Below, one piece after another: positions 5,371 to 64,000 of a stretch of 64,000 nucleotides of DNA (position 1 is its first letter; each line of letters starts with the position of its first letter). Position numbers and translations under genes: made by a program. The notes under the pieces are model-generated. The model made no database searches, was not told the DNA's origin, and was given only the letters and a program-made list of their open reading frames with translations. Origin of the DNA: Haliotis cracherodii (taxonomy: Eukaryota); assembly GCF_022045235.1 (NCBI RefSeq), contig NW_027266341.1, forward strand, positions 40,114,001 through 40,178,000. The letters run 5' to 3'.

Positions 5371-5913
5371 AATCTTCCCGAGGCAACAGAGTAAAGTTGC
5401 TGTAAAAGTCCAGTTTCCACCCTTGCTGAACTAGGCTGGTAATATGGAGTTACATTTTGGCTGGACTAAAGAGTCTATGCATAGTCCAATCAAAATCGCG
5501 CACTGAAATCGAAATCCAGTTCGTAAACTGTCGTGCAGATTTTGATCGATTGCAGTATTTGCAAAGAATGTGCACCGCCAACTCGTCAGCAGATATAATT
5601 CCAAATCTTTTCATGGTTTTAATCACGGTGCTCATGTGATTTGATGCATTTCGCGATGTAAGACCCGTTTTATCACAATATAGATCTTGATTATCGATCA
5701 AATCGTCCTGACCGGGCGCCACCATTTAGTGTGATGCAAACGCAAGTGATACGAGAGGTGGCATCTGATTGGTCCATAGGAGAGGCTTAGAAGGGTCATA
5801 ACTGGTAATAGCCACTGGTGGCGCTACGATCGAGCCCAATAATTCCAGCCTAGTTCGGCAAAGGTGGAAACTGGACTTTTAAAGCCAGTTAACTCTCTTG
5901 TCCCTGGAAGATG
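5371..5913 (-). mobile_element. MITE with CATCTTCCC-type termini, copy 1
   Basis: ~65-bp TIRs; flanking duplication gcagaaga (5363-5370, 5914-5921); body homologous to 54496-55036 in the opposite orientation. Confidence 0.85.
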
Positions 5914-11249: not shown

Positions 11250-11850
11250 AGGAGAGTGCACACACCAGTATAGAGAGAGCTCACCTCAGTATAGAGAGAG
11301 CACACACCAGCATGGAGAAAGTAAGCACACACCAGCATGGAAAGAGTAAGCACACAACAGCATGGAAAGAGTAAGCACACACCAGCATGGACAGAGTAAG
11401 CACACAACAGCATGGAGAGAGTAAGCACACCAGCATGGAGAGAGTGCACACACCAGCATGGGAAGAGTAAGCACACAACAGCATGGAGAGAGTAAGCACA
11501 CAACTGCATGGAGAGAGTAAGCACACAACAGCATGGAGAGAGTGCACACACCAGCATGGAGAGAGTGCACACACCAGCATGGAGAAAGTAAGCACACACC
11601 AACATGGACAGAGTAAGCACACACCAACATGGACAGAGTAAGCACACACCAACATGGAGAGAGTAAGCACACACCAACATGGACAGAGTAAGCATACACC
11701 AACATGGACAGAATAAGCAAAAATGAGCATAGAGAGAAAGTAAGCACATATCAGCATGGACAGAGTAAGCACACACCAGCTTGGAGAGAGAGTGCACACA
11801 CCAAGACAACCCAAACACCAGTATGGAAAGAGTGGACACACCAGCATAGG
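11250..11850. repeat. ~25-bp minisatellite (ccagcatggagagagtaagcacaca) in the probable ARFIP 3' UTR
   Basis: About 24 directly visible tandem units of 23-25 bp. Confidence 0.95.
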
Positions 11851-37738: not shown

Positions 37739-40402
37739 GAATGTGGCTTGTATACTCTATTCTGTAACAGTGCGAGAATGTGGCTTGTATACTCTATTCT
37801 GTAACAGTGCTAGAATATGGCTTGTATCCTCTATTCTGTAACAGTGCTAGAATGTGGCTTGTATACTCTATTCTGTAACAGTGCGAGAATGTGGCTTGTA
37901 TACTCTATTCTGTAACAGTGCGAGAATGTGGCTTGTATGCTCTATTCTGTAATAGTACTAAAATGTGGCTTGTATACTCTGTTCTGTAACAGTGCTAGAA
38001 TGTGGCTTGTATACTCTATTCTGTAACAGTGCTAGAATGTGGCTTGTATCCTCTATTCCGTAACAGTGCTAGAATGTGGCTTGTATACTCTATTCTGTAA
38101 CAGTGCTAGAATGTGGCTTGTATACTCTATTCTGTAACAGTGCTAGAATGTGGCTTGTATCCTCTATTCTGTAACAGTGCGAGAATGTGGCTTGTATACT
38201 CTATTCTGTAACAGTACTAGAATGTGGCTTGTATCCTCTATTCTGTAACAGTACTAGAATGTGGCTTGTATCCTCTATTCTGTAACAGTACTAGAATGTG
38301 GCTTGTATACTCTATTCTGTAACAGTGCGAGAATGTGGCTTGTATCCTCTATTCTGTAACAGTGCTAGAATGTGGCATGTAGCCTCTATTCTGTAACAGT
38401 GCTAGAATGTGGCTTGTATCTTCTATTCTGTAACAGTGCGAGAATGTGGCTTGTATCCTCTATTCTGTAACAGTGCTAGAGTGTGGCTTGTATCCTCTAT
38501 TCTGTAACAGTGCGAGAATGTGGCTTGTATCCTCTATTCTGTAACAGTGCTAGAATGTGGCTTGTATCCTCTATTCTGTAACAGTGCTAGAATGTGGCTT
38601 GTATCCTCTATTCTGTAACAGTGCTAGAATGTGGCTTGTATCCTCTATTCTGTAACAGTGCTAGAATGTGGCTTGTATCCTCTATTCTGTAACAGTGCTA
38701 GAATGTGGCTTGTATCCTCTATTCTGTAACAGTGCTAGAATGTGGCTTGTATCCTCTATTCTGTAACAGTGCTAGAATGTGGCTTGTATACTCTATTCTG
38801 TAACAGTGCTAGAATATGGCTTGTATCCTCTATTCTGTATCAGTGCTAGAATGTGGCTTGTATACTCTATTCTGTAACAGTGCGAGAATGTGGCTTGTAT
38901 ACTCTATTCTGTAATAGTACTAGAATGTGGCTTGTATACTCTGTTCTGTAACAGTGCTAGAATGTGGCTTGTATACTCTATTCCGTAACAGTGCTAGAAT
39001 GTGGCTTGTATACTCTATTCCGTAACAGTGCTAGAATGTGGCTTGTATCCTCTATTCCGTAACAGTGCTAGAATGTGGCTTGTATACTCTATTCTGTAAC
39101 AGTGCTAGAATGTGGCTTGTATACTCTATTCTGTAACAGTGCGAGAATGTGGCTTGTATCCTCTATTCTGTAACAGTGCGAGAATGTGGCTTGTATACTC
39201 TATTCTGTAACAGTACTAGAATGTGGCTTGTATCCTCTATTCTGTAACAGTACTAGAATGTGGCTTGTATCCTCTATTCTGTAACAGTACTAGAATGTGG
39301 CTTGTATCCTCTCTTCTGTAACAGTGCTAGAATGTGGCTTGTATCCTCTGTTCTGTAACAGTGCTAGAATGTGGCTTGTATCCTCTGTTCTGTAACAGTG
39401 CTAGAATGTGGCTTGTATCCTCTATTCTGTAACAGTGCTAGAATGTGGCTTGTATCCTCTATTCTGTAACAGTGCTAGAATGTGGCATGTAGCCTCTATT
39501 CTGTAACAGTGCTAGAATGTGGCTTGTATACTCTATTCTGTAACAGTGCTAGAATGTGGCTTGTATCCTCTATTCTGTAACAGTGCTAGAATGTGGCTTG
39601 TATACTCTATTCTGTAACAGTGCTAGAATGTGGCATGTAGCCTCTATTCTGTAACAGTGCTAGAATGTGGCTTGTATACTCTATTCTGTAACAGTGCTAG
39701 AATGTGGCTTGTATCCTCTATTCTGTAACAGTGCGAGGATGTGGCTTGTATACTCTATTCTGTAACAGTGCTAGAAAGTGGCTTGTATCCTCTATTCTGT
39801 AACAGTACTAGAATGTGGCTTGTATCCTCTATTCTGTAACAGTACTAGAATGTGGCTTGTATCCTCTCTTCTGTAACAGTGCTAGAATGTGGCTTGTATC
39901 CTCTGTTCTGTAACAGTGCTAGAATGTGGCTTGTATCCTCTATTCTGTAACAGTGCTAGAATGTGGCTTGTATCCTCTATTCTGTAACAGTACTAGAATG
40001 TGGCTTGTATCCTCTATTCTGTAACAGTACTAGAATGTGGCTTGTGTCCTCTATTCTGTAACAGTGCTAGAATGTGGCTTGTATCCTCTATTCTGTAACA
40101 GTACTAGAATGTGGCTTGTATCCTCTATTCTGTAACAGTGCTAGAATGTGGCTTGTATCCTCTATTCTGTAACAGTGCGAGAATGTGGCTTGTATCCTCT
40201 CTTCTGTAACAGTGCTAGAATGTGGCTTGTATCCTCTATTCTGTAACAGTACTAGAATGTGGCTTGTATCCTCTCTTCTGTAACAGTACTAGAATGTGGC
40301 TTGTATCCTCTATTCTGTAATAGTACTAGAATGTGGCTTGTATCCTCTGTTCTGTAACAGTACTAGAATGTGGCTTATATCCTCTATTCTGTAACAGTGC
40401 TA
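37739..40402. repeat. 37-bp tandem satellite, ~72 units
   Basis: Unit gaatgtggcttgtat(a/c)ctctattctgtaacagtgcta, contiguous with no spacers. Confidence 0.98.
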
Positions 40403-44544: not shown

Positions 44545-45975
44545 TTATTCTATTGTCCCCGATTTTACCAACAGATACGTTGGTCACTTTTGTGTGAAGA
44601 AGTCACACACCAACTAAATAAACATTATAACACAATGTGTCAGATATGATTTGTTCAAGTGTAGTCTTAACACATTTTATCATCACAACATGAATCACAA
44701 AATCACAAAATCACAAAATTATACCAGCTGGGTACGATACTTTTCATCAGATACGTTAGCATGATTCATTGCCGCACACGCCTGATAAACTACAATACAT
44801 CATGTTGTGTTTGTTACTTTCATAAAACAACGTGTCGCCTATAGGAAATGTCCATCCCGAACCTTGACATGAGTGTCGCAGCTAACAAAAAGCAAAGCAA
44901 AGTGAATGTGAATTGTTGGAGGGAAAGTACTTAAGAAGTACAGATGTGTGTCGGGTTTGAACAAGGCTACAGGCTTGTCAGGAAGAAGTTTATCTCGGAC
45001 CACCTCTAATGTAATAGAGATTCGAGGAAGAGCCCGTCTCACTCTCGTAAGAGAGCAGATTAAGAGACTAGTTGTGTCATTCATGGAGAGAGATGATATC
45101 AGCGTATGTATGCCAGGCAAAGCAGATTCCAAGAGCCTAAATGGTGTCAAACATCAAACAAGAATAATGAATGATTATCTGTCTGAGGTGTATGCTAAGT
45201 TCAAGATTGAAAACCAGAATATGAAACTGTCATTTGCATCATTCTGTAGGCTACGGCCCAGATACCAACAGACATCAGAATATGGCCGTGAAACTCAAAT
45301 GTATGAGAAGTGTTGGATTACAAGTTCCGAAAACACCGGATATGGCGTATGACAGTGTATCCGTGGACGCAATGGATCAGATGCTGGAAACCATTCATGA
45401 ATGACGTAGAATATGATGAGTGGAAGCGTGTGGATGTTGAGGGAAAAAAGAAAATGAAGGTGGTGAAGACAACAAAGAATGTCACTGACTTCAAGAATTA
45501 TATGCTACTTGAAAATGCTGAGTTCTGTGACCATGAGTCGAAGGATACACCCCAGATGGCCATATCATCATACAAATGGGCTTTGCTGAGAACTATACAT
45601 GTTCCAGGATGGATGAAATCCCAAAGTGCATACTGGAACCCAACAAATGTCATGCTTCACACTGTAGTGGTAAACAACAAGTCGGACAAACTGGAACCCA
45701 ACAAATGTCACGCTTCACCTGTAGTGGTAAACTACAAGTCGGACAAACTGGAACCCAACAAATGTCATGCTTCACCCTGTAGTGGTAAACTACAAGTCGG
45801 ACAAACTGGAACCCAACAAATGTCACGCTTCACCCTGTAGTGGTATACTACAAGTCGGACAAACTGGAACACAAAAACTTTATCTATGTGTCTGAGGTCA
45901 ATCAGCACAACTCGACTGAGGTACTCACAATCCTCAAACTGATGTTACCTGAACTGAAAACCACTTTCCCTTATG

Positions 45976-46185
45976 GGGGCACGTCCCTTGCGCCCTCTTG
46001 CGTCCCTTTGGCACGCAAGAAACCTATGATTGTGGGTTCAAATCCCGGTTCGCCCTAATTATGTGTCTAGGTTTGTCAGCACCATACCCGTGCTCGTGGG
46101 TTTCACCGCAGTGGTAAACGTCTAAGACCTGCATCACTTCGGGCTTTTCTCCCACATTAAGCTGACACACACTCACTCACTCACT
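45976..46185 (+). mobile_element. tRNA-derived SINE inserted in the transposase
   Basis: B box ggttcaaatccc, (ACTC)n tail, 14-bp TSD cacttt(cc/ct)cttatg at 45962 and 46186. Confidence 0.88.
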
Positions 46186-46469
46186 CACTTTCTCTTATGC
46201 AACTCATGTTCACTTTTGCACTGATATCCCGTCATCACAGTACCGAAATCGGTACATGTTTGATGTCATTCTGAAGCATAAGGAGGTGTTTGGGCTTGAG
46301 GCACGTTGGAACTATTTTGAGTGTGGCCACGGGAAAGGTTCCTGTGATGGACTAGGAGGTGCATGTAAATGCCAGGCACCCGACGCAGTAAAACAAGGAA
46401 AAGCAACAATTCAAGATGCCCATGATTTTTATGAGTGGGCGAAACACAATAAAAAATCAATCCGATATA

Positions 46470-47994
46470 TACTAGCCACATAAAGAAACTGTGCACGGAG
46501 AAAATATATTCTGGATTGAAATACAACACAGCAAGAACCAAATGATGCAGACGCTGTAGCAGCTGAATGATCGGACCATAAGAAAATGTCAACGGGACCT
46601 GAACAACATCTGTTACGATGACGTCAGAAGATCAAAATGGAGTAGGGGGTCAAACGACAAAGTCACAAAGTCAATAACGGGTATGACCACCCTGTGCGTG
46701 AATCACATCAATGCATCGGCGACGCATGGAGTCCGCCAAATGGGCATGGAAGGCCTGGAGAATGGCCTGCCATATCTTCCTCAAATCCTTTGCCAAGTCA
46801 CGGACGTTATCTGGAGGTTGTGGAAGACGACGCAGACGGCGCTCCATTTCATCCCACACATGCTCTATTGGGGAGAGATCTGGAGAAATTGCAGGCCATG
46901 GCAGTAACATGACATTGTTATGGTGAAGGAAATCCATTGCGACCCTTGCCGTGTGAGGACGAGCGTTGCCCTGTTGAAATGTCAATCCCGGGCCATGGCG
47001 TTGCAGGAAAGGAATGACCACAGGCCTCAGAATCTGATCCCTGTAGCCAACACCGGTGAGATTGCCCTGAACAACCACCAAAGGGGTTCGGTGCCGTGCT
47101 GTTATCCCACCCCAAATCATCACAGAGCCACCTCCAAAACGATTCCTCTCCACAATACAGTTGCGTGCATAACCTTCTCCCAAACGCCGGTAGACACGTT
47201 GGCGCCCGTCACTGTGGGAAATGTTGAACCTCGATTCATCTGTAAAGACAACATTTCTCCACCATATTCGATGTTGGCGAACATGATTTCGACACCATCT
47301 TAGACGGTTGACTCGATGACGGTGTGTCAGGATGGAACGTATGGCAGGGCGTCGTGGTCGATCGAATCCCGTACTGACGTAAACGATTCCTGACAGTGTT
47401 GGGATGGATACGGCGCAGTCCAGGAATTGTCTGGGACGTCGTTACTGCCGTTTGGAACCTGTGTCGGAGATGTGTAACTCGAATCCATCAGTCCTGTCTT
47501 GGCGTCGTTACTCGGGGACGTTCTGAACGTGTCTGGTCGGCAACGTCATTTGTGTTCTGATAACGCCTCACCAATGCCGATATCGTGTAACGATGGCATT
47601 GGAAATGTGTTGCCACCTGTTGTTGCCTCATTCCCGCTCGGATCATTCCAATGGCTTCATGACGCTGTGCAGCTGTCAATCTTGGCATGATTTGCTTGTG
47701 ATATGCTTGTGTCTGTGCCTGAGAAGTTTTGAATTTTTGAATGACCACAGATCATGCTTTCCAAAGTGACAGCGAATTTTGAGTTGCACATGCTGTGTAC
47801 AGCTGCACAGGATGCACGTGCAGTAACACATTGCACGTCCATAGGCCCCCATCAATGACGTCATATCGCATGGCACGTGCATGAGCGTTTGAATGTCTCC
47901 AATAATTGCTGTGTTCAAACCTATCTTTCATATATGGACGGTGTGCCCTTATATCTATATTTTCTCCGTGCACAGTTTCTTTATGTGGCTAGTA
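46470..47994 (-). mobile_element. Tc1 element with perfect TIRs (nested); transposase 47688-46671 disrupted
   Basis: Identical ~39-bp TIRs tactagccacataaagaaactgtgcacggagaaaatata, TA TSD; MPRLTAAQRHEAIG, stop after PRQD, QQGNARPH (D>G), SPDLSPIEHVW. Confidence 0.95.
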
Positions 47995-49774
47995 TAGATT
48001 CTACTCAACTGCTGAAGTAGAGAAGGCTGCGTAGGACATATCTACTCTAACGCAAAGGTTGTACATGGTACAATGAAGTTGCACGCAGTCATGCAGCAGA
48101 ATGGGGTTCTTTTTTCAGGATCTGTATCATGCTACAGTACAGGTTGTCTGAGCGGCAATGACTTATGTGCTGGTTGGCGGCGTCAACCTGTTGACCAAAC
48201 CATATCCCAGGAAAGGCATGTACTGCAGCCCACACAGGCTTCTGTATTCCCTGTACCTGCTGCAACTGCTGTGCCTGCTGCACCACATGTACCTGCTGCA
48301 CCTGCTGTGCCTGCTGCACCTGCTGTGCCTGCTGCACCACATGTACCTGCTGCACCACACGTACCTGCTGTCCCAGTTGTTAGCAGATTTCTGGCTGCCA
48401 TACATGATGATAACTGGTTCATTGGGAATGTTCTTGAAGTTGACATAGATGACGGCGATACCAAAATAACTTTCATAGAGAAAACACAAGACACAGGCAA
48501 GACTTGTACGTACAAGTGGCCATCTCGTCCTGATGAAATTTGTATAGAATTTGATGATGTGATCTGCTTTATTGATGAACCGGTCGCTATTGGCAAAACA
48601 AAGCGCCGGTACAACGTAGTTGCACATGACGTCGCCCGTATTGAGAAGGCATTCAAATGAACATTCACTTTTTTACAAATTTCCAAGATTTCAACCACAA
48701 TGCCTCAAAAAGCATCAGATACGTTATGTTAGAGTTTGTGCTTAATGTCATATGGAGAAAATATGAACCTCATCTTTCATATAAATGTTTAAACTTCAGA
48801 CGTTTTTGAGCCAAAGATCGGGCACTTTTGTTGTTGATTCAGGTTGCCATCAGATACGTCAGGTTTTGCAGTTGGAGATTATTGCTGTGTTCTCTGTAGA
48901 CCAATTCTTGAAGGCCAGGGAATTGGTGAGTAGTTTGTTCGATATTTGTACAAATGTTTGTTATCAAGTTATTTTTGAAAAATGAACAACCTTTCATAGC
49001 CAATAAGTGTCTGTTATTATTTGCTAATATCTGTAGAAAATGTGTTTCTTGAACAGGTGTCCACGACACTGTCCTATTTTGAGACAAATGATCCTTAGGC
49101 AATGACTTTGTTTGAAAATAATATAATATGTAGTCCTATTCAAATGACAATACACCTTTTTGCAAGTTAATAAATACTGTGCTATATATTTTGATTGCAA
49201 TGATAACATGCAGTCTAACGTATCTGACTATAGGACATTTGACATGATATGTTATTTCCGTTTTCATTAACAACAACTCTGATGTAATTGGGTCCCAATG
49301 ATTGATTCTGAAAGTCTGAATACTGTTTTTTACTGAAAATAAGCTAAGTTTTTCAATATCAAGAAATATATTTATCAACATTTGATATGTGAAATATACC
49401 ATTTAGCTGAGAATCAGTGTGGAAGTATTTCCTTACAGTTATCACGGTTAGAGCAATATCTCAAGACATACTCAACAGATTATATTCATATTAACTGAAA
49501 AAGTTATTTAGGAGATTCTGCAGACACCACTTGATTAAGCAGTTGATTAATATGGCCTTTGTATTTGATTCACTGATAAATTCCACATCTGGGTTTCCCA
49601 GATGGTCCATATTACTCAAAGCAGCGTAAAACCACTCACTCACTCATCTTGGCAACATTAGCAAGTCTTAATTGTGAGCAAGTATGCTTCTCCTAATATG
49701 TCCCATTAGCATTTATGCAAACGTGGCCATAGTTGCTCTTTTGTTGATACAAACTATGACCAAACAGACATATA

Positions 49775-50935
49775 TTATAACCCAACCGACACATACAATA
49801 ACTCAAAAGGAACATACTATAACCCAACAATCACATACTATAACCCTAAAGTCACATACTATAACCCAACAGTCACACACTATAACCCAAAAGGCACATA
49901 CTATAACCCAACAGTCACACACTATAACCCAACTGACACATACAATAACTCAAAAGGAACATACTATAACCCAACAATCACACACTATAACCCAACAGGC
50001 ACATACTGTAACCCAACAGGCACATACTGTAACCCAACAGGAACTTACTATAACCCAACAGGCACATACAGTAACCCAACAGTCACATACTATAACCCAA
50101 CAGGCACATACTGTAACCCAACAGTCACATACTATAACCCAACAGTCACACACTATAACCCAACAGTCACACTCTATAACCCAACAGTCACACACTATAA
50201 CCCAACAGACTCATACTATAACCCAACAGACACATACTGTAACCCAACAGACACATACTGTAACCCAACAGTCACACACTATAACCCAACAGTCATACTC
50301 TATAACCCAACAGACACATACTGTAACCCAACAGACACACACTGTAACCCAACAGTCACACACTATAACCCAACAGTCACATACTATAACCCAGCAGACA
50401 CATACTGTAACCCAACCGACACATACTGTAACCCAACAGACACATACCGGTACTGTAACCCAACAGAAACATACTGTAACCCAACAGACACATACTGTAA
50501 CACAACAGACACATACTATAACCCAACAGACACATACTATAACCCAACAGACACATACCGGTACTGTAACCCAACAGACTCATACTATAACCCAACAGAC
50601 ACATACTGTAACCCAACAGACACATACTGTAACACAACAGTCACACACTATAATCCAACAGACACTACAACCCAACAGTCACACACTATAACCCAACAGA
50701 CACACACTGTAACCCAACAGTCACACACTATAACCCAACAGTCACATACTATAACCCAACAGACACATACTGTAACCCAACCGACACACACTGTAACCCA
50801 ACAGACACATACTGTAACCCAACAGACACATACTGTAACCCAACAGACACATACTGTAACCCAACAGACACATACCGTAACCCAAAAGACACACACTATA
50901 ACCCAACAGACATTATACCCCAATAAACACACACC
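49775..50935. repeat. 21-bp minisatellite (ataacccaacagacacatact)
   Basis: About 55 tandem units; a few units also occur at 36975-37165. Confidence 0.96.
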
Positions 50936-53900
50936 ATAGTAACTAGATAACAACAATTGATGACATGTTTATAAACTTTTAATAACAGTTGTAAATTGAC
51001 GGATGGATATTACAGGAATACTGAAAAACTGATTTAAGTAAATGCATATAAAACAAAATGAGTAACAATGACTGGAAGCACCATGTCTTTCTCCAACCAA
51101 CAAAATGTATTTGGAAGTCAGTGTTGAACAATGCACAACATGTAAAATAATGCACTCATGAGTACTGTACAGGTTGACACTGGTTAGAGGTGTTGATATC
51201 ACAGTAGTGCACAAACTATAAAGTTGTAACAAAAGTTCCTAAAATCATTTATATATGTGAACATCTGTCATCACCAAACCTGCCTCATATCAACAAGTTG
51301 AGGTCATTGTTGTACAGGAAACAGTGTTCGTTGGTAAGATCAGCTAACCTGGAGTCCACCACCTTCAGTATGACCAGTGCTGGTTTCAACACTGGACTGT
51401 GGAAAATGGCGTTATTTCTCCCTGAATGCTTGAGGTGCAGTGATGACACGGTCATGTGACATATTTGATAAATAAGGTCAGGTGATCATGACGAGAGACA
51501 GAGCTGTCTGAATTTGTGGGTTCATATTCTTGAAACATGTACAGTTCTCACTGACACGTATCTACCACATTTGTTTCAGCTACAGTTACTTGGTGCATGA
51601 ATCACAGGATTGTCCTTGATAATATTAGCGGTGTTTTTTCCCATTTAATCTCCATGCTGGTTACAGGTACAAACCTATGATACAACATATGGTGTCTCCA
51701 CCCCATCTCTCATGTACAACACTCATCTTGCTAGCCTGTCTTGGTTACCATGCATGAAGACTGTTGGTACTTGCTGTGTGTCACTGTGGTTGGTTGTCTT
51801 TGATTCATGTACTAACCAACCATTCTAGTCTGTCTATCCAAATCTTTGTTACCATGCATCACCCAACTTGAAGATTATTGGCACAAGTAGAACACTTGTC
51901 AAGTCTGTGTATCCATATGAGAAAAGATGAACTGTTCATCAAATTATTCACTATGTGTTATCATAATAACTTGGTGTTCATTGTATGTAATCTGACATCT
52001 TAGTTCCTTGAAAAGCCACACTGGACAATAACTTGCATGCACTGTATACATGCTGAGAGATTCATCTGGTAATAACCATTGCATAGACTTCACTAAAGGG
52101 AACTGCCATGAAATGTTAGTGGGTAAGAGTATTCACATGTACAGAAATACATAAAGCTGAGACATTCATCAACCACAGGGAATATATAAAATGAATCATA
52201 TTCCCGTTGATTGTTACTATCAACAAATGTATATATAAATAGAAGGATAAAACACCTACCTCCTTAAAAAGTTTTTCAGTTGTTTAACATGACCTGAGCA
52301 GTAGTGTACATCGGCACTCTGGAGGGATTTCCAAGATGGCGGCATGAGGATACCCCAGAAGGGTAAGTGCAACCATCTTGGACACAACGCCCTATCCAAG
52401 CACGATGATGTCATGTCCGGTCACATGACCGGATGTTTCAGCTTTTTGACAAGATCTTGAGGGAAGTGCCGAGATCTCACCGAAAGTGACAGAAAGTGAC
52501 CAAAAATGATGGGATCTCACTGGAAGTGAAGGAATCTCGTTTGACGAGACGAGATATCTTGGGACGGGACAGAAATGAGTTGGGGCGCATGCGTAGAGGA
52601 GAGAAATGAAGAGGAAGGAGGTGGGGCGGGGCAGGTGATGTGAGGGGCGAGCTTGGGCTGGGTGAGGAGGGGCGGAGAGAAGGAGTGGCATGCTGGATGA
52701 AAGATGAAGAACAACAAAACAGACAAAGAAGAATCAGGTAGTTTCGGGCCTGTGCTTCAACCATTCTTTTGAGACGATTGGGGGTGGCCCTGAAAAGGGC
52801 CGTTGGAATGGTGGGAGTCTACTCACGTGGACAGATAGCCTTTGGTCTGACCCATGTGGTGTTGTTGTTGTTGTTGTTGTTGTGGGTTGCAGAAGGCATT
52901 CAAGAGGTCTTCCATGGGTTCCAACAACTGCAAGATATGCTGAAGTTGATTGGATACCTTGGTTACCTTGGCACTCAACAGTGTCAGTAGGAGATTATCT
53001 GCACCCTAGGATTTAGCTACTTTCATGGGAGGCTGGTCTGGCTGGTGGACTGCAGTTGGACCCAGTGCCTTACCAGTTGGAGCAGACCAGCTGAAAAACA
53101 GCTATGAAGTTCCGAACAAGTACCCAATGTTACGAACAACAGTTTACCCGAGCCTGGTTAGAACGTCAACCACCCGATGACCTACCTGAGACCAGTTTGA
53201 TGCTGTGATGAATGACTTGAGAGACGATGTGGGAGACCACGAGGATGACCGATGACCATGTTGTTTTGGCTCTTGAACACCCAGCACTGGATTCAGAGAT
53301 CCGTTCTGGCATATGTTTGAGCTCCATGGTGAAGACATCATGGCTATGGTAGAAGAAAATCAGCAAAGTTACAATGACTAGCTGGTGGATGAAGAAATGA
53401 AGATCGATTTACTTCATGTAGAAGATCAAGACTGAATAGGAGAGGGGCATGGACAACCAAGACATATAGCAGGGTTGACTACCTTCCTAGAAAAGAAAAA
53501 AATGTACAGGCCATGCAACGTGGGATCAATTTAGTCAGCGCTTGCCTCCATACTATCAGCGGAAGGTATTGTCCCAAGATGTACTGAATCATGTATTGTA
53601 CTATCATGATCTCTATTATAATGTCATCATGACCATTCCCGTCTTTACAGGCTGTTTCCAGCACCATTCGACAGTCTATGACAAAAACATCCCAGCACCT
53701 GTTCCACCATTCACACCTGTCATCGATGCTGGGCCAAAGTTAACCTGAAAACAATCCACAGCATAGACAAACACATCTGTGGTATGGGTCAAGACTGCAA
53801 GAGTTTTAAAGAACCTGTGGGCCCTAACCACAAGTCATGTAAGTGATCACCGCAAGCACTGAGGCAATGAAGAAAAAGAACAAAAGCAGCTCAAGTTTTT

Positions 53901-54495
53901 TCTTCTATGACTTTGAGTGCCCCCAATACCAAGGTTCATGTTTCCAACTTGTGTGTGGTGCATCTGAGATGGAGAAAATGGCCTCTGACCAATTGTGTGA
54001 GGACCTTCTGAACAAAGAAGGTAGGGGCTACCTGTGTCAAAGAGTCTTTGAAGAATCTACTACCTTGAATGACATGGGGATTGGTTGATGAGTCGGGCAG
54101 AAAAGATGAAACTGAAGAAGAAATGTAAGACACTCCTGCAGTCAGGCACAGCACCCAAGCAACACTTAATCAGAAGAGGGCAAAGACATCTCACCTATGC
54201 TTCATGATGACATCTTGTTGATTTCTCACAACTACCATGGTTATGATGGACACCTGCTACTACAGTATTAGCTGAAGGGGCTGTCTTTGATCTGGATGAG
54301 GAATTGTTGGCCTACTGTCAGGGTGATGTGGACATTTATGGAACCCCTCAACGCATTCTACAGGGAGCTAATTGCATGCACACCAATATTTCTTAGGAAC
54401 TCGAAACACCACCAAAACGTCTTTCTGTGATACAGTCAATATTATCACATGATCAATTTCATGAATGTGTGGAGTTTTGACAACATGTTTTGGTA

Positions 54496-55036
54496 CATCT
54501 TCCCGAGGCAAGAGAGTTAACTGACTTTAAAAGTTGAGTTTCCACCCTTGCCGAACTAGGCTGGAATTACTGGGCTCGATCGTAGCGCCACCAGTGGCTA
54601 TTACCAGCTATGTCCCTTCTGAGGCTCTCCTATGAACCAATCAGAATCCACCTCTCGGATCACTTCGTTTGCTTCAAACAAAATGGTGGCGCCCAGTCAG
54701 GACGATCTGATCGATAATCAAGATCTATATTGTGATAAAACGGGTCTTACATTGCGAAATGCATCAAATCATGTGAGCACCTTGAGTAAAAACATGATAA
54801 AATTTGGAAAATATCTGCTGACGAGTTGGCGGTGCACATGCTTTGCGAAGCCTGCAATCGATCGAAATCTGCACGACAGTTTACGAACCGGATTTCGATT
54901 TCGGTGCGCGATTTTGATTGGACTATGCATAAACTCATTAGTCCAGCCAAAAGGTAACACCATAATACCAGCCTAGTTTGGCAAGGGTGGAAACTGGACT
55001 TTTATAGTCAGTTAACTCTCTTGCCTTGGGAAGATG
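54496..55036 (+). mobile_element. MITE with CATCTTCCC termini, copy 2
   Basis: TIRs with 9-bp TSD gttttggta (54487-95, 55037-45). Confidence 0.9.
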
Positions 55037-55629
55037 GTTTTGGTATGAATGCAGTGTTTTTGACAACATATTTTTGTCGCCTTGTTAAGATAACAGGAGT
55101 TTGGGGGGCTTGCCACCACACAACAGCTTGAATAAAATGCTTTCATAAGTGATTTATAATCCATAATCATCAAAGTTATTCAACCATGTTTGTTTGAAAT
55201 GTGGCCAAAATTTATGTCACTGATGAGGTTGGTATGGAACTTCTATTTCCAAGTACTTTTTATTATGCCGTTGCCCTTTTTTAAAAATATTGGGATTGAT
55301 AGGTTGAGTCATATTTAACCATACAGATGCAAGCGGAATCTTTTTTTCTGGTCATTTTCAGCTTTATTTTCCTCTCTTCAAAAGAGTAGGGCTTTCGTGT
55401 ACTGCTTTAATACTAGCGTGTACCCATGCTTCACGTATGTATTGCATAATGAAAATGTCTGAGAAGTGAAAACAAGCATCACAGCATGGTCCTGTTAACA
55501 TTGCTCTTTTGCACATGAAATTGAGCTTTTTTACCCCACTGATTACTCCACTGATTACTCCAAAACTTCAATTAGGGTTGGCATCTCTACACCATGCAAG
55601 TGCTGATGGCAGTCGGTACATGTCGGACA

Positions 55630-55860
55630 GAGACCGTGAAGATCTGGGGTAGAATAGGTCTTCAGCAACCCATGCTTGCTGTAAAAGGCGACTGTGCTTG
55701 TTGTAAAAGGCGACTAACTGGATCGGGTGGTCAGACACGCTGACTTGGTTGATGCATGTCATTGATTACAATTGTGTGGATCGATGCTCCTGATATCAAT
55801 CATTGGATTGTCTGGTCCAGACTGATTATTTACACATTAAACAATAAGCAAACAAACCAA
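55630..55860 (+). mobile_element. SINE-like element with RTE-type head
   Basis: gaccgtgaagatctggggtagaataggtcttcagcaacccatgc...ctggtccagact with an (AAAC)-rich tail. Confidence 0.85.
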
Positions 55861-56544
55861 AAGATGAATGAATGCCATCAAGTTGTTGTGAGGCCAAATC
55901 AGATGAAACCTTTCAATATGTAGATGACTGCTCTCTCTAACCTTACATTTGTAAGTATGGTACCTTCCCAGTATGACATCCAGTCATCAAAGATCATCCT
56001 CCAGTGTCCGCACTGTTTTAGCTTCATGGCCTTATCCAATGTCAGGTATTGCCACCCTCTGACCTCCTCCCTACCACGTCCATGACAACATGTTATTCCC
56101 TCTGCGTTGCACTTGTGCTGAAGGACCGCTGGATGGTTCATAACCCTACAGTGATGAATACGTCGGGATGTATGTTGGCAAGGAGCTTCAGTATGCAGTT
56201 CAACAGTGTGGCTATCAGGTGCTTCACATCTACGAGGCTTGTCACTTTGACATGTTATCAACCTACTATCCTGTCACTCAAGGAAGCCTGTTTGCCAACT
56301 ATGTGTACAACTTCTTCAAGATCAAACAAGAGGCAAGTGGTTACCCAAAGAGATGTGAAGACACAAATACCAACGTCAGTGACATTGGGATAGAGGGTAT
56401 GACCTTAGATCCCTCTAATTCCACGAGAACCCTGGACTGCGTGCTTTAGCTAAAGCATGCCTCAACAACCACTAGGGAAAGTTTGATCAATGTCGAGGGT
56501 TTGGAAAAGCAGAGTACATCAGTACACTGCTGAGTTTCTTTGCG

Positions 56545-56823
56545 TGCGTGCGTGTGGCTGCTTGTATAAAGCCGGACTGATGCTGATTTATAGTGCTAGC
56601 TCACTGAGATACCATGCCGCAGTTTAACATAAATACCCCACTCAGACACAGTATAATGACTCCGAGCTGACCAGTACTTCTTTTAGCCTTTTAATGCTGA
56701 GCGCTAGACAGGGTAACAACAAGTACCATCTTTTAACTCCTTTTGTATGATGCGGCCAGGGATCTAACCCCCGACCTTCTGCTCTCCGGGTGGATGCTCA
56801 ACCACTAGACCACGGAGACGGTC
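56545..56823 (-). mobile_element. tRNA-derived SINE inside the Polinton polymerase
   Basis: tRNA-like head on the minus strand; body gatttatagtgctagctcactgag shared with 58917-59165. Confidence 0.85.
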
Positions 56824-57280
56824 CAATTAACTCTGTCTCAACTATGCACCTCAGAGGGATATTTCATGATACATATCCTGCACACAATGTCGACTCAAGC
56901 ACGCCTCAAGCTGTATTCATACCTGTAGCTCTTGGATCAAAGTGTGTTGTACTTTGATACAGACAGCATCATGTACATCCATCGACCACTGACCTGGAAC
57001 CAACCCCAGGATGATACTTTGGGGTATCTCACCTATGAGCTTGGCGGGGGAAACAGCATCCATACCTTTGTCTCTGCAGGTCCCAAACTACTTTACAAAC
57101 AACTTCACTCTCAATCAGATGGCACTAGACCAGCTGAAAAGTCCATGGATTTATCCTCAATTACTGGACCAGTTACCAAGTGAACTTTGACATGGTGAAG
57201 AACCATTTGTCAAAGCTTATCGCCTGGTCTGTATCACATACCGCTGGAGACACAGGCAGACTAAAGTCATTATCATCACC

Positions 57281-57775
57281 ATGGGAAGTCTCGTTCAAGA
57301 CAAGTACATGTTCTTCTATTTGAAACAGTCTCACTTTAGTCAACATGACCCTGTGGCCATGGACATTGATGGCATCATGTTTAATTGTACAGAACAGTAA
57401 TACATGTATCACAAAGCATGCATGTTGGAGATCAAGGGACAGCCAACCATGTGTTATCCTCCTCCTGTAGAACAGAAACGTCTTGGGAAAACAGTCAAGC
57501 AGTTTGCAGTCAAGCAGCAATGTGACGGAGTGACCCCTCATGTCGTGAAGAAAGCCACTCAAGCCAACTTTACACAACATTCCATCTTACAATGTTACCC
57601 GATGTCCGATCCCAAGGTACTTGTTGAAGCTAGTCCTTATGATAGGTGATGGGGCATTGGCTTGGGAGTAGATCATCTATGTCTGACAGAATCAGCATGG
57701 AGAGGTCAGAATCTCCTTGGACAGATTCTCATGGAAGTGAGACATACCCTACTGTTACAATTAAGTGACGTTATC
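57281..57775 (+). pseudogene. NADAR (YbiA-like) hydrolase carried by the Polinton; two in-frame stops
   Basis: One frame from accATG at 57281: FFYLKQSHFSQHDPVAMDIDGIMFNCTEQ*YMYHKA...QKRLGKTV...LVEASPYDR*WGIG...WRGQNLLGQILMEVR. Confidence 0.9.
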
Positions 57776-58099
57776 ATGCTGCTGATCACGTTTGACTGTT
57801 GGACTCAACTACATCAAGAAGTGACCTCATACCAGACATATCCTTCATCATGCTTTTCACCCTGCTCTTCACGTACTGTGGCTACATACATTGAAGAAAG
57901 ACGATTCTTAGAACTGTTTAGACAAGCTGTACAAGACGCTCTTCAGAAGCAACATGACCTCAACGTCATAGCGTGTGCACCTGTGACATCAAAGCTTATG
58001 CATGACCACCTATAAAACACAGGACTGGGCAATGCATGGTATTTAGATGCAGCTCTATCTTGGAACTTAGTACATTGTTTAACACTCCTCCGCTATTTG

Positions 58100-58275
58100 T
58101 TTAAATGCCCATTACATAGTACTGTTTAAAAACTGCAGGGATGCCGCTCAAATTGATCACTTGGCCTTTATTCGGGAAGCCTATGAGGATGCCACCTTGG
58201 CTCCGTATTCCTACTTGTTTTTGGACTTGAAATCCACCATGTTAAAAGAACATCTTGTATGCACCCATCTCTTTT
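58100..58275 (+). pseudogene. Polinton packaging ATPase, C-terminal relic
   Basis: LNAHYIVLFKNCRDAAQIDHLA-FIREAYEDATLAPYSYLFLDLKS. Confidence 0.88.
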
Positions 58276-58359
58276 GCAAACCAACCACCCATTGCCAAGT
58301 AAAAGCATTAATAGAGACCGCCATCTACCTCAGGGTTCAGTTGACGCCTTAATAGCTGT

Positions 58360-59480
58360 CATGGGGCGCAGACAGAAGCAGGTGAAGTCCACCCAGCTTC
58401 AATAGTTTGTCATTGCCATGAGAATTCTTCGAGGAGGACACGTTCCTTTGAAGACTGAGCTTACATCCTGGCGGATAAGACACCAAGATGTGTTGACCAG
58501 GATTGCGAATCCACATCCCTGTGTTGATGAACGTCTGAGTTATGCTACACAGTGGGAGCTGTGCCATAGCTGGTGTTTTGACACACATTTCACTGAACTG
58601 GCAGTCCTACCGGCAACAGCCCCCACCATGTCAGCCTGCACCACCGCGAAAAAAGGCAGCACCAAGTGCTATACTGAACAGAAAACGTGTATAGAAAAGA
58701 AAACAGATGATAATCGCAGCATAAACAGCAGCAGCAGCAACCTTGACACATATGGTGTTACGAAGCTGACCTCATCAGGGGTATTATCCCTACTCTCTCC
58801 ACCTACATGACCATCCAGCCACACCCTTGTCAGTTGATGTTCAACAGCAGTACCATCAACAACAACAACCACAACAAACACCCATCATGTCTCGACGTTG
58901 ACACACCACAAAAATGAGGTGAGGTGAAATTGGGTTTAACGTTGCATTCAAGATTATTGCCCTTATATAGTGCATGCTCTTGTGCATATGCTCGTTCTAT
59001 TTTGGACTAATGCGGATTTAATAGTGCTAGCTCACTGAGGTAGCATGCCACAGTTTAACATGAGTACCCTACTCATACACAGCATACTGACTCCGAGCCG
59101 ACCAGTCCTTGTTTTCACCCCCTCATTGCCGAGGGCCTGGCAGGGTAACAAGTACCCCGGACCAGTTGTACTCCATCACTAGACTTTGGTGGTGGTCCAC
59201 ACCAGAAAGAAACCATTTGTCATGTGTTCACCTCTACAGCCAGGAGACAAGCTATTTTGATACAAGCCCCATCCAATCTGATTCAAGCCATATATGAATG
59301 TGCAGTTAATCTGTATGCAGGCAACACCAACGCCAACATTTACAACAGCATGGCAAACTAATGCATACTTTGATGAAAAGGAAAGTCTCTGTGGCCAAGA
59401 AACGTAAGTTATTGTCTGCACTGGCATATGTGGTTGGTCCATTGTTGTCTGGATTGTTGTGTGGTGGGAGATAGAGGGAG
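58360..59480 (+). pseudogene. Two relics of a small conserved Polinton protein (PW-like) at ~58360-58560 and ~59290-59480
   Basis: ILRGGHVPLKTEL..RHQDVLTRIAN and ECAVNLYAGN...QHGKLMHTLMKRKVSVAKKRKLL. Confidence 0.55.
58917..59165 (-). mobile_element. 5'-truncated SINE
   Basis: (GAGGT)n tail; body homologous to 56580-56730. Confidence 0.8.
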
Positions 59481-59513
59481 CTCCCTTTGTTAGTTGAATA
59501 ACCACCACCCACC

Positions 59514-60030
59514 ATGAAGCATGCACGGAAAATTGCTCTGGTCCCTCAAGACATATGGCAGAGTCTGCAAGAGGAAAAACGCCAACAGCATTTGCTCAAG
59601 TCCAACCTGTTGGAACAGCGGAACGGTTGCACACACTTCATGACATAAATGCCTTAATCCAAGAAATTAGTGTTCCCTTTATGAACAGAGAACAGCAGTA
59701 TAACACTTTACTGCAGCTGACCTTGAATGCCTTTTCAAGACAAAGTAGCACAACAAGCTCCTTTCAAACAACGGACCCCTGAGGCTGGATGATTTGGTTC
59801 AACAACATACTAAAACAGAACCCCCACATGGATGGTAAGTATTTAGCTTCCAGCAATGTGCCTCATGAACAGATTGACAACCCTAAACATTGGTCATGGA
59901 TGATGAAAACCAAAGGACAACCAAACAGTAGTCTGGTGTCAACCACTGCAAAGAAGCGCTGCAGCCACCTATACGACAGTGAATTCAGTTTTGATAAAAG
60001 AGAGAACAGGGCAAGGGTCAGCATGAGATG
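59514..60030 (+). pseudogene. Conserved uncharacterised Polinton ORF relic
   Basis: Starts accATG MKHARKIALVPQD, as I recall for the ORF preceding the integrase in animal Polintons; frameshifted. Confidence 0.5.
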
Positions 60031-60119
60031 AGCTAAGAGAAAGACAGGCAGCACTACCTCCACCGAGGGCTCATCTTCGCTCAAGCAGGTGTCTCCTACA
60101 TAGACACCATGGCTCCAAT

Positions 60120-60335
60120 ACACCTGTTCTGATCCCAAACATCCTGCATGGTATGGAATGGATTGCATTGTGGCCAGCAGCAGGATGCCAAGCCAAAGAT
60201 GCTGGTCCGTCCCCAAGGCCCACACGTCAGATTCGTCAATGGTTGAAAACCCAGGACGAGTATACACTGCACAGCCATGCCTAACGATCGTTTCCCAAGA
60301 ACTGTTACTGTGTTGGGGCATTGATGACTAGCGTT
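60120..60335 (+). pseudogene. Polinton retroviral-like integrase, N-terminal relic
   Basis: DPKHPAWYG...WLKTQDEYTLHSHA*RSFP...GIDD; catalytic core absent. Confidence 0.8.
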
Positions 60336-62994
60336 TGACAAAGGTTATCTCCCAAACTCGACAACCAAATTGTTCCCCTGTTTCACAACATTAGTTGTGT
60401 CTCTGGACAACATGAAGAGTGAACATACACACCACACTACCATTTCCCATCCATGTGAATCCTCAGCAGTGGGGCGTGAGCGAACTTCATTTTCCAATGC
60501 CATGGTACAATGTGACTTACCCCTTCAACTGGTGTGTCCTGAAAGTGAACTCGGAAAAAAATGACCATGATTTATAACTCAGCTGCCCTTGATGCTATAA
60601 TGACAGAAGAGGACCCAGGCCTAGCCAGAGTGACCACCTAAAAGATAATTATTCCAGAAGGGGTTTCTTCCTGATCATATTGCTTCAATAAACCTACACA
60701 CACTTGATGCAGAAATATACAGGAGGTGTTAACAATGTGGATGGTAGAGGTCGTTACACAGTCACTGTGAACAACCCAAAAGACCAACTCTGATCTGACA
60801 TACATGGAAAAACGCATTTGGACTTTCATGCTCGAACCCTAAAAGACCTGTAAGAATTTCAATGATGACCCCTGCAGAACAGCCAACCTGCCTGATCGTG
60901 ATACAATAAAATCAGCATACCGCACCCGACTGATGTTACCAGCTCCCTTGGTACATTGTGGGACACCAGTTTGTCACACACCTCTATGCCACCGGTTTGG
61001 GCAGACAGCAGCGAGGGAAAGGCCTGGCAGTATACTGAGGATGAATCCATCAAATTGCCATGCAGGTGATGGAGATTGTGTATCGATTGGTGTCTCAACC
61101 GAAATGAGCTCAAAATCCCAGTTTCCATATTGCTGTCATAGAATGCAGTAACACCTATCCTCCCCACTTTATATAGTAGGGCTCAGACAATCAAAAAAGA
61201 CATGATGTTATCACATGCTATCTGATGATGTCATCAGTGCATGCACTACCATGATGCCATTGGGTCCTATCTAAGCTGAGGATGCTTGAGGAAGGATATC
61301 AGTCTCACTGACTGTTGACAACATGGATGCAAGAACACCGACCAGTACACAAAACAGCAACCTTACCAACCAATTGTGGAAGGAAACAGTGTCTAAGATG
61401 CAGTCCGTCTCTCAGAAAGGTGTTTCGGGGCCTATTGAAATGCAAGGTAGGAAGCTGGAACAGACTGGCATTGATACAGCTGGAACAGCAGCAGCAGCAA
61501 CACAAGCAGCAGCATCCCCCAAGAGAGAAACATCTGAAACCCAAACCAATTCGACATAGTTTAAGTATTCCCTCAGGATTGGGGGTGCAACATATGCACT
61601 CGGTGCTAAAAAGCAAATCGCTCCAACCTATTTGACTTTGTCCCGGTAGCCACCTTGTATGTCTGCATGTATTGTTTGGGAATAGTTAGAAAGACCCAAC
61701 AAGAATTGCAAGACAGTGTGTGCAGGGGCCAATTTGTTTTCATAAGAATGGATCTTGTGTGCAGTTGTCAATAAAAACTATTTTTCCCTTCCCAGCCATT
61801 TCATGGTCTTCACCAATCATCTCAAGAGAATGCTTGAAACACAGGCTCGTAACTACCTACTTGATATTTGTCGGTTTTGTTTTTGTTTTTCTTCTTGTTC
61901 TTTTATCCACTACTTTTATCCCCCACCCCCCGCCTTCTTCCTCTTCCTCGCTCTCCTCGGCAAGTGCCCTAACCTATTATTCTGTCCTGCCTAGCGAGAT
62001 CACGTCACATCCTGCGAGATCCCGTCACTTACGTGAAACCCTGTCACTTCCGATAGATCTTGTCACTTCATGCGAGATTCCGTCATTACCTGCGAGATCT
62101 CCTCAAGATGGCGACACATCTAGTCATCTGTTGTGACGCCAGTTTGACCGGATGGGGCGTGTTTGTCTGATTCTGTGTATCCCAGCATCCCCATCTTGGA
62201 AATCCCGTCAGAGTGAAGATGTACACTACTTGGGCTAAAATGAAAAAGATTCCATTGGCCATTGCATCTGATTACACAAGAGATATCCCTTCTTGCTGCA
62301 GGGCTGATATCAATGCTTTCCTCACAGCTAGACAATATTTATCACAAACATTATTGCATATGTGTCCTATAATAATATCACAGCCTTCTATGATGATCAT
62401 GATCATTAGGGATTTAAGACTCGTAGATGCTGTTTTTCCTAACTGTTCCCCGTCTTTTCAGGAGCTTCTCAAGTTGTGGAAGATGGGAGTTGCTTGTCTT
62501 TGCTACTGCTCCTTCACCAGTATGTGGGAGGTTGTCAGTATTAGTATCCTGCGGTGACTTTGCACGGCTACATGTGGAATCAATTCTTGTGGAAGCCTTG
62601 CTTGAGTATTGGCAACCTCATCTGTGAAGAAATGCACATACATATAGTCTGGAAGTTAATTTAAGGTACCGACGTTTACTATAATATCTGAAAAACTATT
62701 GGACCTACTCCAGTCAAAGTTGGTTTGAGATTATTAAACAGTCATTCATAACTGGATATTACATTTAAAGACAATCGGTGCATGAATAAAAAATCTGTCT
62801 ATTTAGCTATCACTATATTTCATCAACAACCAGACCTGTTTGGCACGGGTGGAAGGAGCAATTATTGTAACAGCCATCTGCATCATGCTACCCTTGCGTC
62901 ACAGGGCCATATGACACAGTTGAACCAATCAACTCAACTCGAAAGGTTGCACGGGAATCACGCACGCACGAATACGGTGTAAGCATTTGATTTC

Positions 62995-64000
62995 ATGATG
63001 TCTCAGCGCAAGCATCTTTCCGCTGATGCGATAGGTTTCGTTGTTAAAATATTTGAATACTTTAAGGCTGAAAGTGAAAGACGTTCGCCCTTCTTTGACA
63101 TTTCAAAGTACATGAAAAGAACAATTCATGCGTTACAGCTTCCCAAACAAACCGTAGTTAAGATTTTGAATTCTCATAAAAACACATGCTCCCCTGCACA
63201 TCCCTTAGGGGGCATCTCAAAACAGGATAGGAAATTAAAGTTAGATTCCTTTGATAAGAAAGTTGACAGGGACGTGATTCGGCGGTTAACACGAGAAAAT
63301 GAATTTATTTCAACACGAAAACTAAAACAAATTCTCCTTACAGAGCATGACTTAGATATTTCCAAATGGACCATTTGTAAACACCTTTCCATATTTGGAT
63401 ATCAGTACAAAAAGATGAAAGGGTCGAAACTAGCAATGTGTGAATGACCAGATATCATTCGTTTGTATATCAATTATTTGCGCACTATTAAAAAGAAACG
63501 AGAAGAAGGCTATGAGCCTGTCTATTTGGATGAAACCTGGGTTAACGCCTGCCACACAGCGGCTTACTAATGGTCTCACCCAGATACCAGAGAGCCACAG
63601 CGCAAGATCCCCCCTGGTAAAGGGGAGCGCCTGATTGTCCTCCATGCAGGCTCCCACAGAGGTTTCCTCCCTGGGTGTGATCTAGTGTTCAGATCCAGAT
63701 CTACAGATGGCAGAGACTACCATACCGAGATGAATAGTCAGGTTTTCACTGCGTATGTTGGGGAGCAGCTCCTCTTAGCACTGCCTGATAAATCCTTGGT
63801 GGTTATGGACAATGCTCCCTATCACAGTTGTTGAGATCCTATTAACTGTTGTCCAACCTCAAATTCCACCAAAGGTGAGATATATCAGTGGTTGGACAAC
63901 AACCGCATTGCTCGGTCCACGAAAGCCAAAAAAACTGATTACTACCAACTGGTTCTTCAGAACAAACTCCCGCCCTCTTATTTGATTGACAACATGTTGA
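62995..64000 (+). pseudogene. IS630-Tc1-mariner transposase of Sailor/DD82E-like type, with stops; runs off the window
   Basis: VYLDETWVN, GKGERLIVLHAGS, DYHTEMNS and VMDNAPYHS followed by a long insert (KGEIYQWL...YLID). Confidence 0.82.

Follow-up and report, generated by a model that had tools for sequence, protein, structure and literature searches.

The window, a 64,000-nucleotide stretch of the Haliotis cracherodii genome, carries a NADAR (YbiA-type) pseudogene inside a decayed Polinton. With moderate confidence, we see in it a defunct member of a NADAR lineage that has been at home in abalone Polintons for a long time and that likely moved from Beta-polymerase families into an Alpha-polymerase element. 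In working elements, the product of this lineage is predicted to release ADP-ribose from bases in DNA or RNA and would likely undo host marks on viral nucleic acid in this way. The strongest new point is this intron-nested, Polinton-resident lineage, not the gene order of the window.

The element in the window is old. It is a decayed 9.9-kb Alpha-PolB Polinton at 52300-62230, deleted and invaded by host repeats, with the following features.

52300..52798, plus strand: left terminal inverted repeat, beginning AGTAGT; 62% identical to the right arm over about 500 columns and 90% over the terminal 40 nt
53068..57254, plus strand: decayed protein-primed DNA polymerase B, Alpha type, interrupted by host repeats and without its last conserved codons
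54496..55036, no strand: miniature inverted-repeat element inside the polymerase; second copy at 5372-5913
56545..56824, no strand: dispersed host repeat inside the polymerase; related repeat at 58915-59151 and another at 55634-55834
57255..57761, plus strand: NADAR cassette, present in the window and absent from sister elements, in which the polymerase end leads directly to GAGTGACGTCA
57281..57757, plus strand: NADAR (YbiA-type) pseudogene, with stops at 57398 and 57647 and an off-frame stretch at about 57425-57465
57304..57309, plus strand: GT at the splice-donor position of other families (codon 8/9), with no partner gene downstream in the window
57762..57880, plus strand: stretch corresponding by homology to the polymerase stop of the sisters and to a putative promoter region, which in those elements contains TGACGTCA and TATA-like words
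57893..58012, plus strand: remnant of a short unknown frame common to the sisters, 66% identical to C3:33314130; the tail of the frame originally predicted
58095..58280, plus strand: packaging ATPase C-terminal remnant, 59% identical to the ATPase frame in L171 and weakly matching the Pox_A32-positive family-A ATPase
59200..60950, plus strand: further Polinton-frame remnants common to the sisters, with an integrase-like motif at about 60120-60340 and a minor-capsid-like one at about 60440-60950, both by eye
61796..62230, minus strand: right terminal inverted repeat, ending ACTACT and pairing with the left arm

The ends read AGTAGT...ACTACT at 52300 and 62230, AG-type terminal ends being a Polinton hallmark, and the flanks (TGAGC and TGGGC) are alike at four of five positions, which we counted as a target duplication. 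The original prediction had placed the NADAR gene inside the terminal inverted repeats and between polymerase and ATPase; both placements hold in the window, with polymerase remnants at 53068-57200 and the ATPase remnant at 58095-58280. Its description of the gene as co-oriented with all viral genes stands for these two neighbors, both on the plus strand. The integrase-like and minor-capsid-like pieces were recognized by eye from their motifs and have no Pfam match (none was returned for the integrase-like piece). No major capsid or protease remnants were found in this heavily deleted element. The polymerase pieces can be aligned along two polymerases, of 1358 and 1428 aa, whose frames are unbroken at other places in the genome. 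Both of these match PF03175, the type that corresponds to the Alpha class in the available text of PMC8502044, and the window polymerase has no match at E < 1e-3 to the Beta-type polymerase of family A, another Polinton family of this genome. An 11-kb element at C23:3540009-3551132 (L135-L136) has inverted repeats that are 99% identical. Besides an Alpha polymerase frame of 1428 aa without breaks, it carries two genes for BIR (inhibitor of apoptosis) proteins, and no capsid, ATPase or integrase was recognized among its ORFs. The genome holds more than 20 polymerase frames of 1426-1433 aa, which suggests a young, possibly capsid-less family.

A profile search, proposed with the original prediction, verified the NADAR identity of the gene. 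With X at the stops, residues 12-157 match PF08719 (E = 2.2e-26; 93.5 bits, curated cut-off 35.1), and the only matches among PDB sequences are YbiA (2B3W) and an oomycete NADAR (8BAU). The predicted ATG at 57281 (context ATCACCATGG) and both predicted point stops, at 57398 and 57647, were recovered. Other details required correction. The first motif, given as FFY..FS, reads FFYLKQSHFS. No frameshift had been seen; we found about 14 codons at 57425-57465 that align with relatives only in another frame, which indicates a compensating frameshift pair. Against the six of eight comparison proteins that are members of the Polinton clade, this stretch has BLOSUM scores of 14 to 29, compared with -16 to 0 in the main frame. 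The predicted extent, 57281..58015, is right at its start but too long: the NADAR domain stops near 57757, and 57762-58015 is read-through, as DNA from 57762 onward corresponds by homology to what in the sisters is the polymerase stop and a promoter-like region.

The order polymerase-NADAR-ATPase had been taken as ancestral, and comparison with sister elements did not support this. The junction is kept at C3:33.31 Mb, in a tandem array at C3:21.8-22.0 Mb, at C12:7.22 Mb and at C31:0.19 Mb, and in all four places the polymerase end abuts a promoter-like motif resembling GAGTGACGTCA, with no NADAR, the absence that the prediction itself had named as speaking against it. In the window, about 510 bp (57255-57761) occupies the place of the last polymerase codons. 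NADAR was likewise found beside none of 13 further Alpha-type polymerase stretches and in none of 9 further stretches beside sister matches, most of which lack a kept junction, and each of the relatives examined in the range of 70-82% DNA identity is fragmentary. A DNA search of the genome returned no second copy of the window NADAR. Given this and the absence from the sisters, the window order is a single case in the genome. A gain of NADAR would be the simpler, if tentative, reading. An apparent second case of the same order, at L166, proved to be a nested insertion. L171 (C1:59464424-59466712) is a 2.3-kb deletion derivative with AGTAGT ends and ATPase and BIR remnants only, located at the start of another family's NADAR.

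We found 73 NADAR matches in the genome with a protein query and 90 with the profile, and examined 50 loci outside the host cluster described below (six weak matches outside that cluster were left out). ORF210, a gene discussed below, adjoins NADAR in 45 of these loci, an integrase in 29 and a BIR gene in 7; only the window has an Alpha polymerase. Besides the window element, at least five Polinton families (A-E) carry intronless NADARs, dozens in all. Most are in family A, which is young. Four family-A copies contain NADAR, ORF210, integrase-chromodomain, capsid-like, protease-like, ATPase and BIR frames and an opposed polymerase, mostly at 94-100% identity, and the copy at C1:34352641-34367534 is 14.9 kb long, has inverted repeats and shows a target duplication of 6 bp. 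Pfam matches in this family are rve, Chromo, Pox_A32 (below cut-off) and Peptidase_C5 (weak). The frames that we take to be its capsid and Beta polymerase were labeled from motifs and have no Pfam match; the lack of a PF03175 match, or of any significant match to Alpha polymerases, fits the Beta class for this polymerase. The family C polymerase is related to it, and no linked polymerase was established for families B, D and E. The NADAR frame is unbroken in 8 of 15 family-A copies. The L005 NADAR scores 148.8 bits against PF08719 (Pfam E = 2e-43 for the unbroken copy), and the closest protein match to the family-A NADAR is only 57% identical. BIR genes lie beside NADAR or after the ATPase in L002-L004, L019, L025, L029 and family A, and are found repeatedly in both lineages of polymerase. 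At C13:16778735-16788768 (L014, L015 and L017), a deleted family-A unit of 3.3 kb, NADAR included, is present three times in tandem.

We constructed two trees, one of 91 rows (LG+G4) and one of 53 rows (mixture model), in which each row is a single in-frame stretch with X at stops; stretches below 95 residues and near-duplicates were left out. All 16 Polinton rows, including the window gene, form a single clade, starred in both trees (100/99; 99/96). One or two unplaced proteins join this clade, and P0003 and P0186, which come without genomic context, lie inside it. Host NADAR domains fall outside it in both trees. Of the 12 NADAR loci found in IMG/VR (36-48% identity), six were placed in the 91-row tree, and all six lie outside the clade. 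The window gene forms a long branch, lengthened by the off-frame stretch in its row, and an approximately unbiased (AU) test did not reject its grouping with host NADARs (P = 0.2); BLAST ranks and the off-frame stretch both favor the Polinton side. At the protein level, it is 45-49% identical to other Polinton NADARs, 40-42% to host domains and 40-44% to host-type proteins of Haliotis, Batillaria, Bulinus and Liolophura. Its DNA is about 60-61% identical to any family fetched and dS is saturated, so no sampled family is a recent donor. The host NADARs form an intron-bearing tandem cluster at C34:41.51-41.60 Mb (L075-L082), and a host NADAR gene is close to an H. rubra protein. Genes at C34:41505001-41600000 contain many tandem NADAR domains with low-complexity linkers, and Haliotis proteins have up to seven NADAR stretches.

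These data bear on two other accounts of how the gene arrived. Given the intron-bearing, multi-NADAR host cluster and the AU result, the gene might be a processed copy of a host NADAR mRNA. We regard this as very unlikely, and it was already disfavored: the six best matches of the window gene are all Polinton copies, both trees agree on the Polinton placement, and the scores of the off-frame stretch are 14-29 with the Polinton clade but 3 with the host domain. In addition, the DKY motif follows the ATG at a distance of seven codons, as it does in Polinton families, whereas host domains were seen with longer N-termini. A quite possible account, which we place a little short of evenly balanced, is that the window order is accidental, a NADAR piece from another Polinton family having entered a defective Alpha element and never worked there, while the Beta-family NADARs are still real genes. 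It would explain a single-copy arrangement missing from all four sister places, with a cassette that replaces the last polymerase codons and precedes the sisters' stop, and Polintons do nest mutually, as the 2.3-kb Alpha-type derivative inside a NADAR at C1:59464424 illustrates. However, the window gene is complete and co-oriented, with an ATG in good context, no sampled family qualifies as a recent donor, and small deletions occur throughout the element, so the missing polymerase codons may reflect later decay. The position of the cassette where the last polymerase codons belong, as passive capture would leave it, does count against the explanation that we prefer, namely, movement of a resident NADAR lineage from Beta-polymerase families into the Alpha element. 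The direction of that transfer would be from Beta to Alpha.

Between families, dN is 0.22-0.39 and dS ranges from 1.3 to saturated; between the window and the families, dN is 0.45-0.49 and dS is about 3 or saturated. As judged from these rates, Polinton NADARs evolved under purifying selection. Variants within family A show no selection signal (shared variants: 3 silent to 7 replacement, P = 0.34), as is expected for decay after insertion. The equivalents of E43, K50, E125, D130 and W133 of 8BAU, active-site residues as placed in the accessible portion of PMC11543638, are conserved in the window gene and, apart from one change in L002, in unbroken family-A and family-B copies; in the window gene, W89 is changed and R79 is Lys. 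The glutamate at the defining position of the last strand (E125 of 8BAU), together with E43 and K50, identifies the YbiA subfamily. Consistent with this assignment, the model of the unbroken L005 NADAR (pLDDT 96.8) matches only 8BAU and 2B3W (TM 0.84 and 0.78, respectively). The Polinton proteins have neither the aspartate at the defining position nor the N-terminal extension of DarG1, and no transferase was seen among the neighbors; the histidine of phage gp30.3/AdfN is likewise absent, with glutamate in its place. The original proposal that a Polinton ancestor carried an ADP-ribose eraser therefore stands in part. In this host, NADAR is a long-term Polinton gene rather than debris, given its presence in at least five other families, its single clade, dN far below dS and its kept catalytic residues, but the proposal is not supported for the ancestor of the window element with the gene between polymerase and ATPase.

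Elsewhere than in the window element, NADAR stands first or second in the gene order, and its start codon and first seven codons also serve ORF210, the gene that follows. The remainder of NADAR lies within an apparently spliceable phase-2 GT-AG intron of 529 nt in ORF210, so that splicing gives ORF210 and retention would give a 168-aa NADAR. Eight of 11 RefSeq ORF210 models open with the first seven NADAR codons and splice NADAR out, and this nesting may explain why the gene was missed. As read by eye, the donor GT at NADAR codon 8/9 is present in 25 of 28 loci, with codons AAG, AGG and CGG alike, and an in-phase AG precedes ORF210 in all five families, mostly after pyrimidine-rich sequence. 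The window NADAR retains the donor GT without ORF210. None of the listed runs is recorded as RNA; among three that we guessed to be RNA (X1, X2 and X6), the splice joint was found in one, X2, where at L005 it connects 1523 to 2053 with GT..AG ends and skips 529 nt. In X1, separate contigs meet at the acceptor. Unspliced contigs cross NADAR in X1, X2 and X6, contigs being unable to give levels, and the DNA-like run X15 contained no joint. Since the NADAR frame was under selection, the retained form was probably translated in active elements.

ORF210 is identical to Haliotis-labeled proteins and has a 58% relative in H. asinina; a metagenome search with it yielded one weak locus. It has no Pfam, Atlas or fold match, which shows neither novelty nor absence. 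Its model (pLDDT 68) consists of a small beta domain and helices with a C-x-x-C...H-x-C motif, and fold comparisons with this model gave no transferase match (best Z 4.8; none at E < 0.001). The same motif is common to L045:474-1103 (ORF210) and L045:7331-8086 (a frame beside the family-A polymerase), which show weak similarity (E about 5e-5 with family-D copies); the two frames are perhaps distant paralogues. The tight linkage (45 of 50 loci) and the common transcript would be in keeping with NADAR and ORF210 being an antitoxin-toxin pair that makes the element addictive, and NADARs are antitoxins in DarTG1 and YarT-YbiA. Yet ORF210 has no Pfam match, its low-confidence model gave no transferase match, and the window NADAR stands without it. 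With neither a family nor a fold match for ORF210, such a pair is unsupported, and we consider it highly improbable.

The proposed role of the lineage builds on family chemistry. According to the available sections of PMC11543638, PMC11125620 and PMC12945103, ADP-ribose linked to guanine is removed in vitro by every class of NADAR tested, and glutamate-type NADARs also reverse the cytidine marks made by ScARP (PMC12945103). In active elements, an early transcription unit would give ORF210 if spliced and NADAR if unspliced. NADAR is then predicted to remove base-linked ADP-ribose from viral DNA or RNA, presumably on single-stranded replication intermediates or transcripts, and would likely thereby reverse marks set on viral nucleic acid by some host ADP-ribosyltransferase, the putative writer. 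A counter-defense role is suggested by likeness to phage AdfN, phage NADARs being described as counter-defenses in the accessible part of PMC11825919. YbiA-type NADARs were active in vitro yet failed to rescue cells from DarT1 (PMC11125620, as far as its text was available), which makes the originally suggested DarT1 rescue a poor test. We also consider a bolder version, speculative and rather unlikely in our view: Polintons would be real viruses under an undescribed host defense by nucleic-acid ADP-ribosylation, with the eraser held behind a splicing switch. Retention of the first intron, as might happen when infection stresses or shuts down splicing, would give NADAR instead of ORF210 from the same start codon, and the cassette would be valuable enough to have jumped between polymerase lineages.

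Other targets have to be weighed against marks of a host defense. YbiA also accepts riboflavin intermediates, and the possibility of further substrates counts against the preferred explanation. A housekeeping role, possible but doubtful in our estimate, would have NADAR clear single-stranded or end-bearing intermediates of protein-primed replication of the ADP-ribose added by DNA-damage PARPs, or hydrolyze an N-glycoside that is a small molecule. The host genome has many PARP-family loci (43 matches), stand-alone NADARs may have other targets (PMC11543638, available text), and, within the accessible text of PMC12945103, cytidine ADP-ribose made by PARP1 is cited from a preprint and glutamate-type enzymes remove the cytidine marks of ScARP. 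On the other hand, most Alpha-type polymerases here replicate without a NADAR neighbor, and a BIR gene within the fetched stretch in 7 of 50 loci suggests a host-control block. The original prediction was narrower, a guanine-specific eraser acting against a CARP-1/pierisin-type host toxin. ScARP, whose marks NADARs reverse, is a pierisin-family enzyme, and CARP-1 homologues also occur in some non-bivalve animals (PMC12945103, in the part available). We nevertheless find this version unlikely and its link to guanine and CARP-1 weak. Abalone is a gastropod, CARP-1 homologues are mainly bivalve and guanine specificity is not expected of glutamate-type enzymes (both from the same portion of PMC12945103), activity was reported from six clams (PMC11209040, available text) and the reversal of marks made by CARP-1 is described as unconfirmed. 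A search of the host for Scabin-like PF22596 proteins was blank, with its control also silent.

The closest known proteins are E. coli YbiA (2B3W) and the Phytophthora NADAR (8BAU), which share with the Polinton copies PF08719, the fold, the catalytic glutamate and the phosphate-binding lysine. Unlike these, the Polinton NADARs are element-borne and mostly intron-nested, with Ser or Thr at the Arg93 equivalent, and they do not have a DarG1-type N-terminal extension. Phage orphan NADARs (T4 gp30.3/AdfN; PMC11825919, accessible text) are similarly stand-alone viral genes without a cognate toxin but have histidine at the family-defining position, whereas the Polinton proteins have glutamate. Host mollusc NADARs are of the same YbiA-type family; they differ in having domains spread over three exons, often several in a row within a long protein, and in falling outside the Polinton clade. 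In the available text of PMC9503650 and PMC11848433, NADARs are reported from giant viruses, iridoviruses, ascoviruses, nidoviruses and annelid or bivalve picornaviruses, and are proposed, as here, to be accessory viral genes directed against host ADP-ribosylation. The abalone carrier differs in being a 10-15 kb integrating element with the gene controlled by an intron, and the words Polinton and adintovirus do not occur in the searchable part of that survey. The elements share inverted repeats, pPolB, integrase, ATPase, capsid and protease with described Polintons/Mavericks (adintoviruses; PMC8502044 and PMC10748475, available portions), in which IAP accessory genes and exchange of Alpha and Beta modules are already known. 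NADAR is not named in the main texts of these two papers or in the searchable supplement of PMC8502044, figure labels lying outside the text search. As the original prediction had supposed, no earlier description of a Polinton NADAR was found in the literature searched.

Only in phages are NADARs proven counter-defenses; for animal viruses, their role is predicted. That small integrating viruses of a farmed mollusc have a conserved NADAR lineage points to base-linked ADP-ribosylation as a gastropod antiviral tool and supports the view of an infectious, host-fighting Polinton phase. Unbroken natural copies exist, which makes the chemistry directly testable.

Elsewhere in the window, a Tc1/mariner-type element occupies 46465-47999. 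Its inverted repeats are 44 nt long, and its DDE_3 frame is on the minus strand at 46671-47441. It is inserted in a longer stretch of decayed coding sequence, at about 44900-48660, for which Pfam gave no clear match. The start of a decayed DDE_3 transposase at 62983-64000 runs off the window. Tandem arrays are located at 37739-40402 (72 x 37 nt), 49749-50912 (55 x 21 nt) and 11252-11803 (20 x 25 nt).
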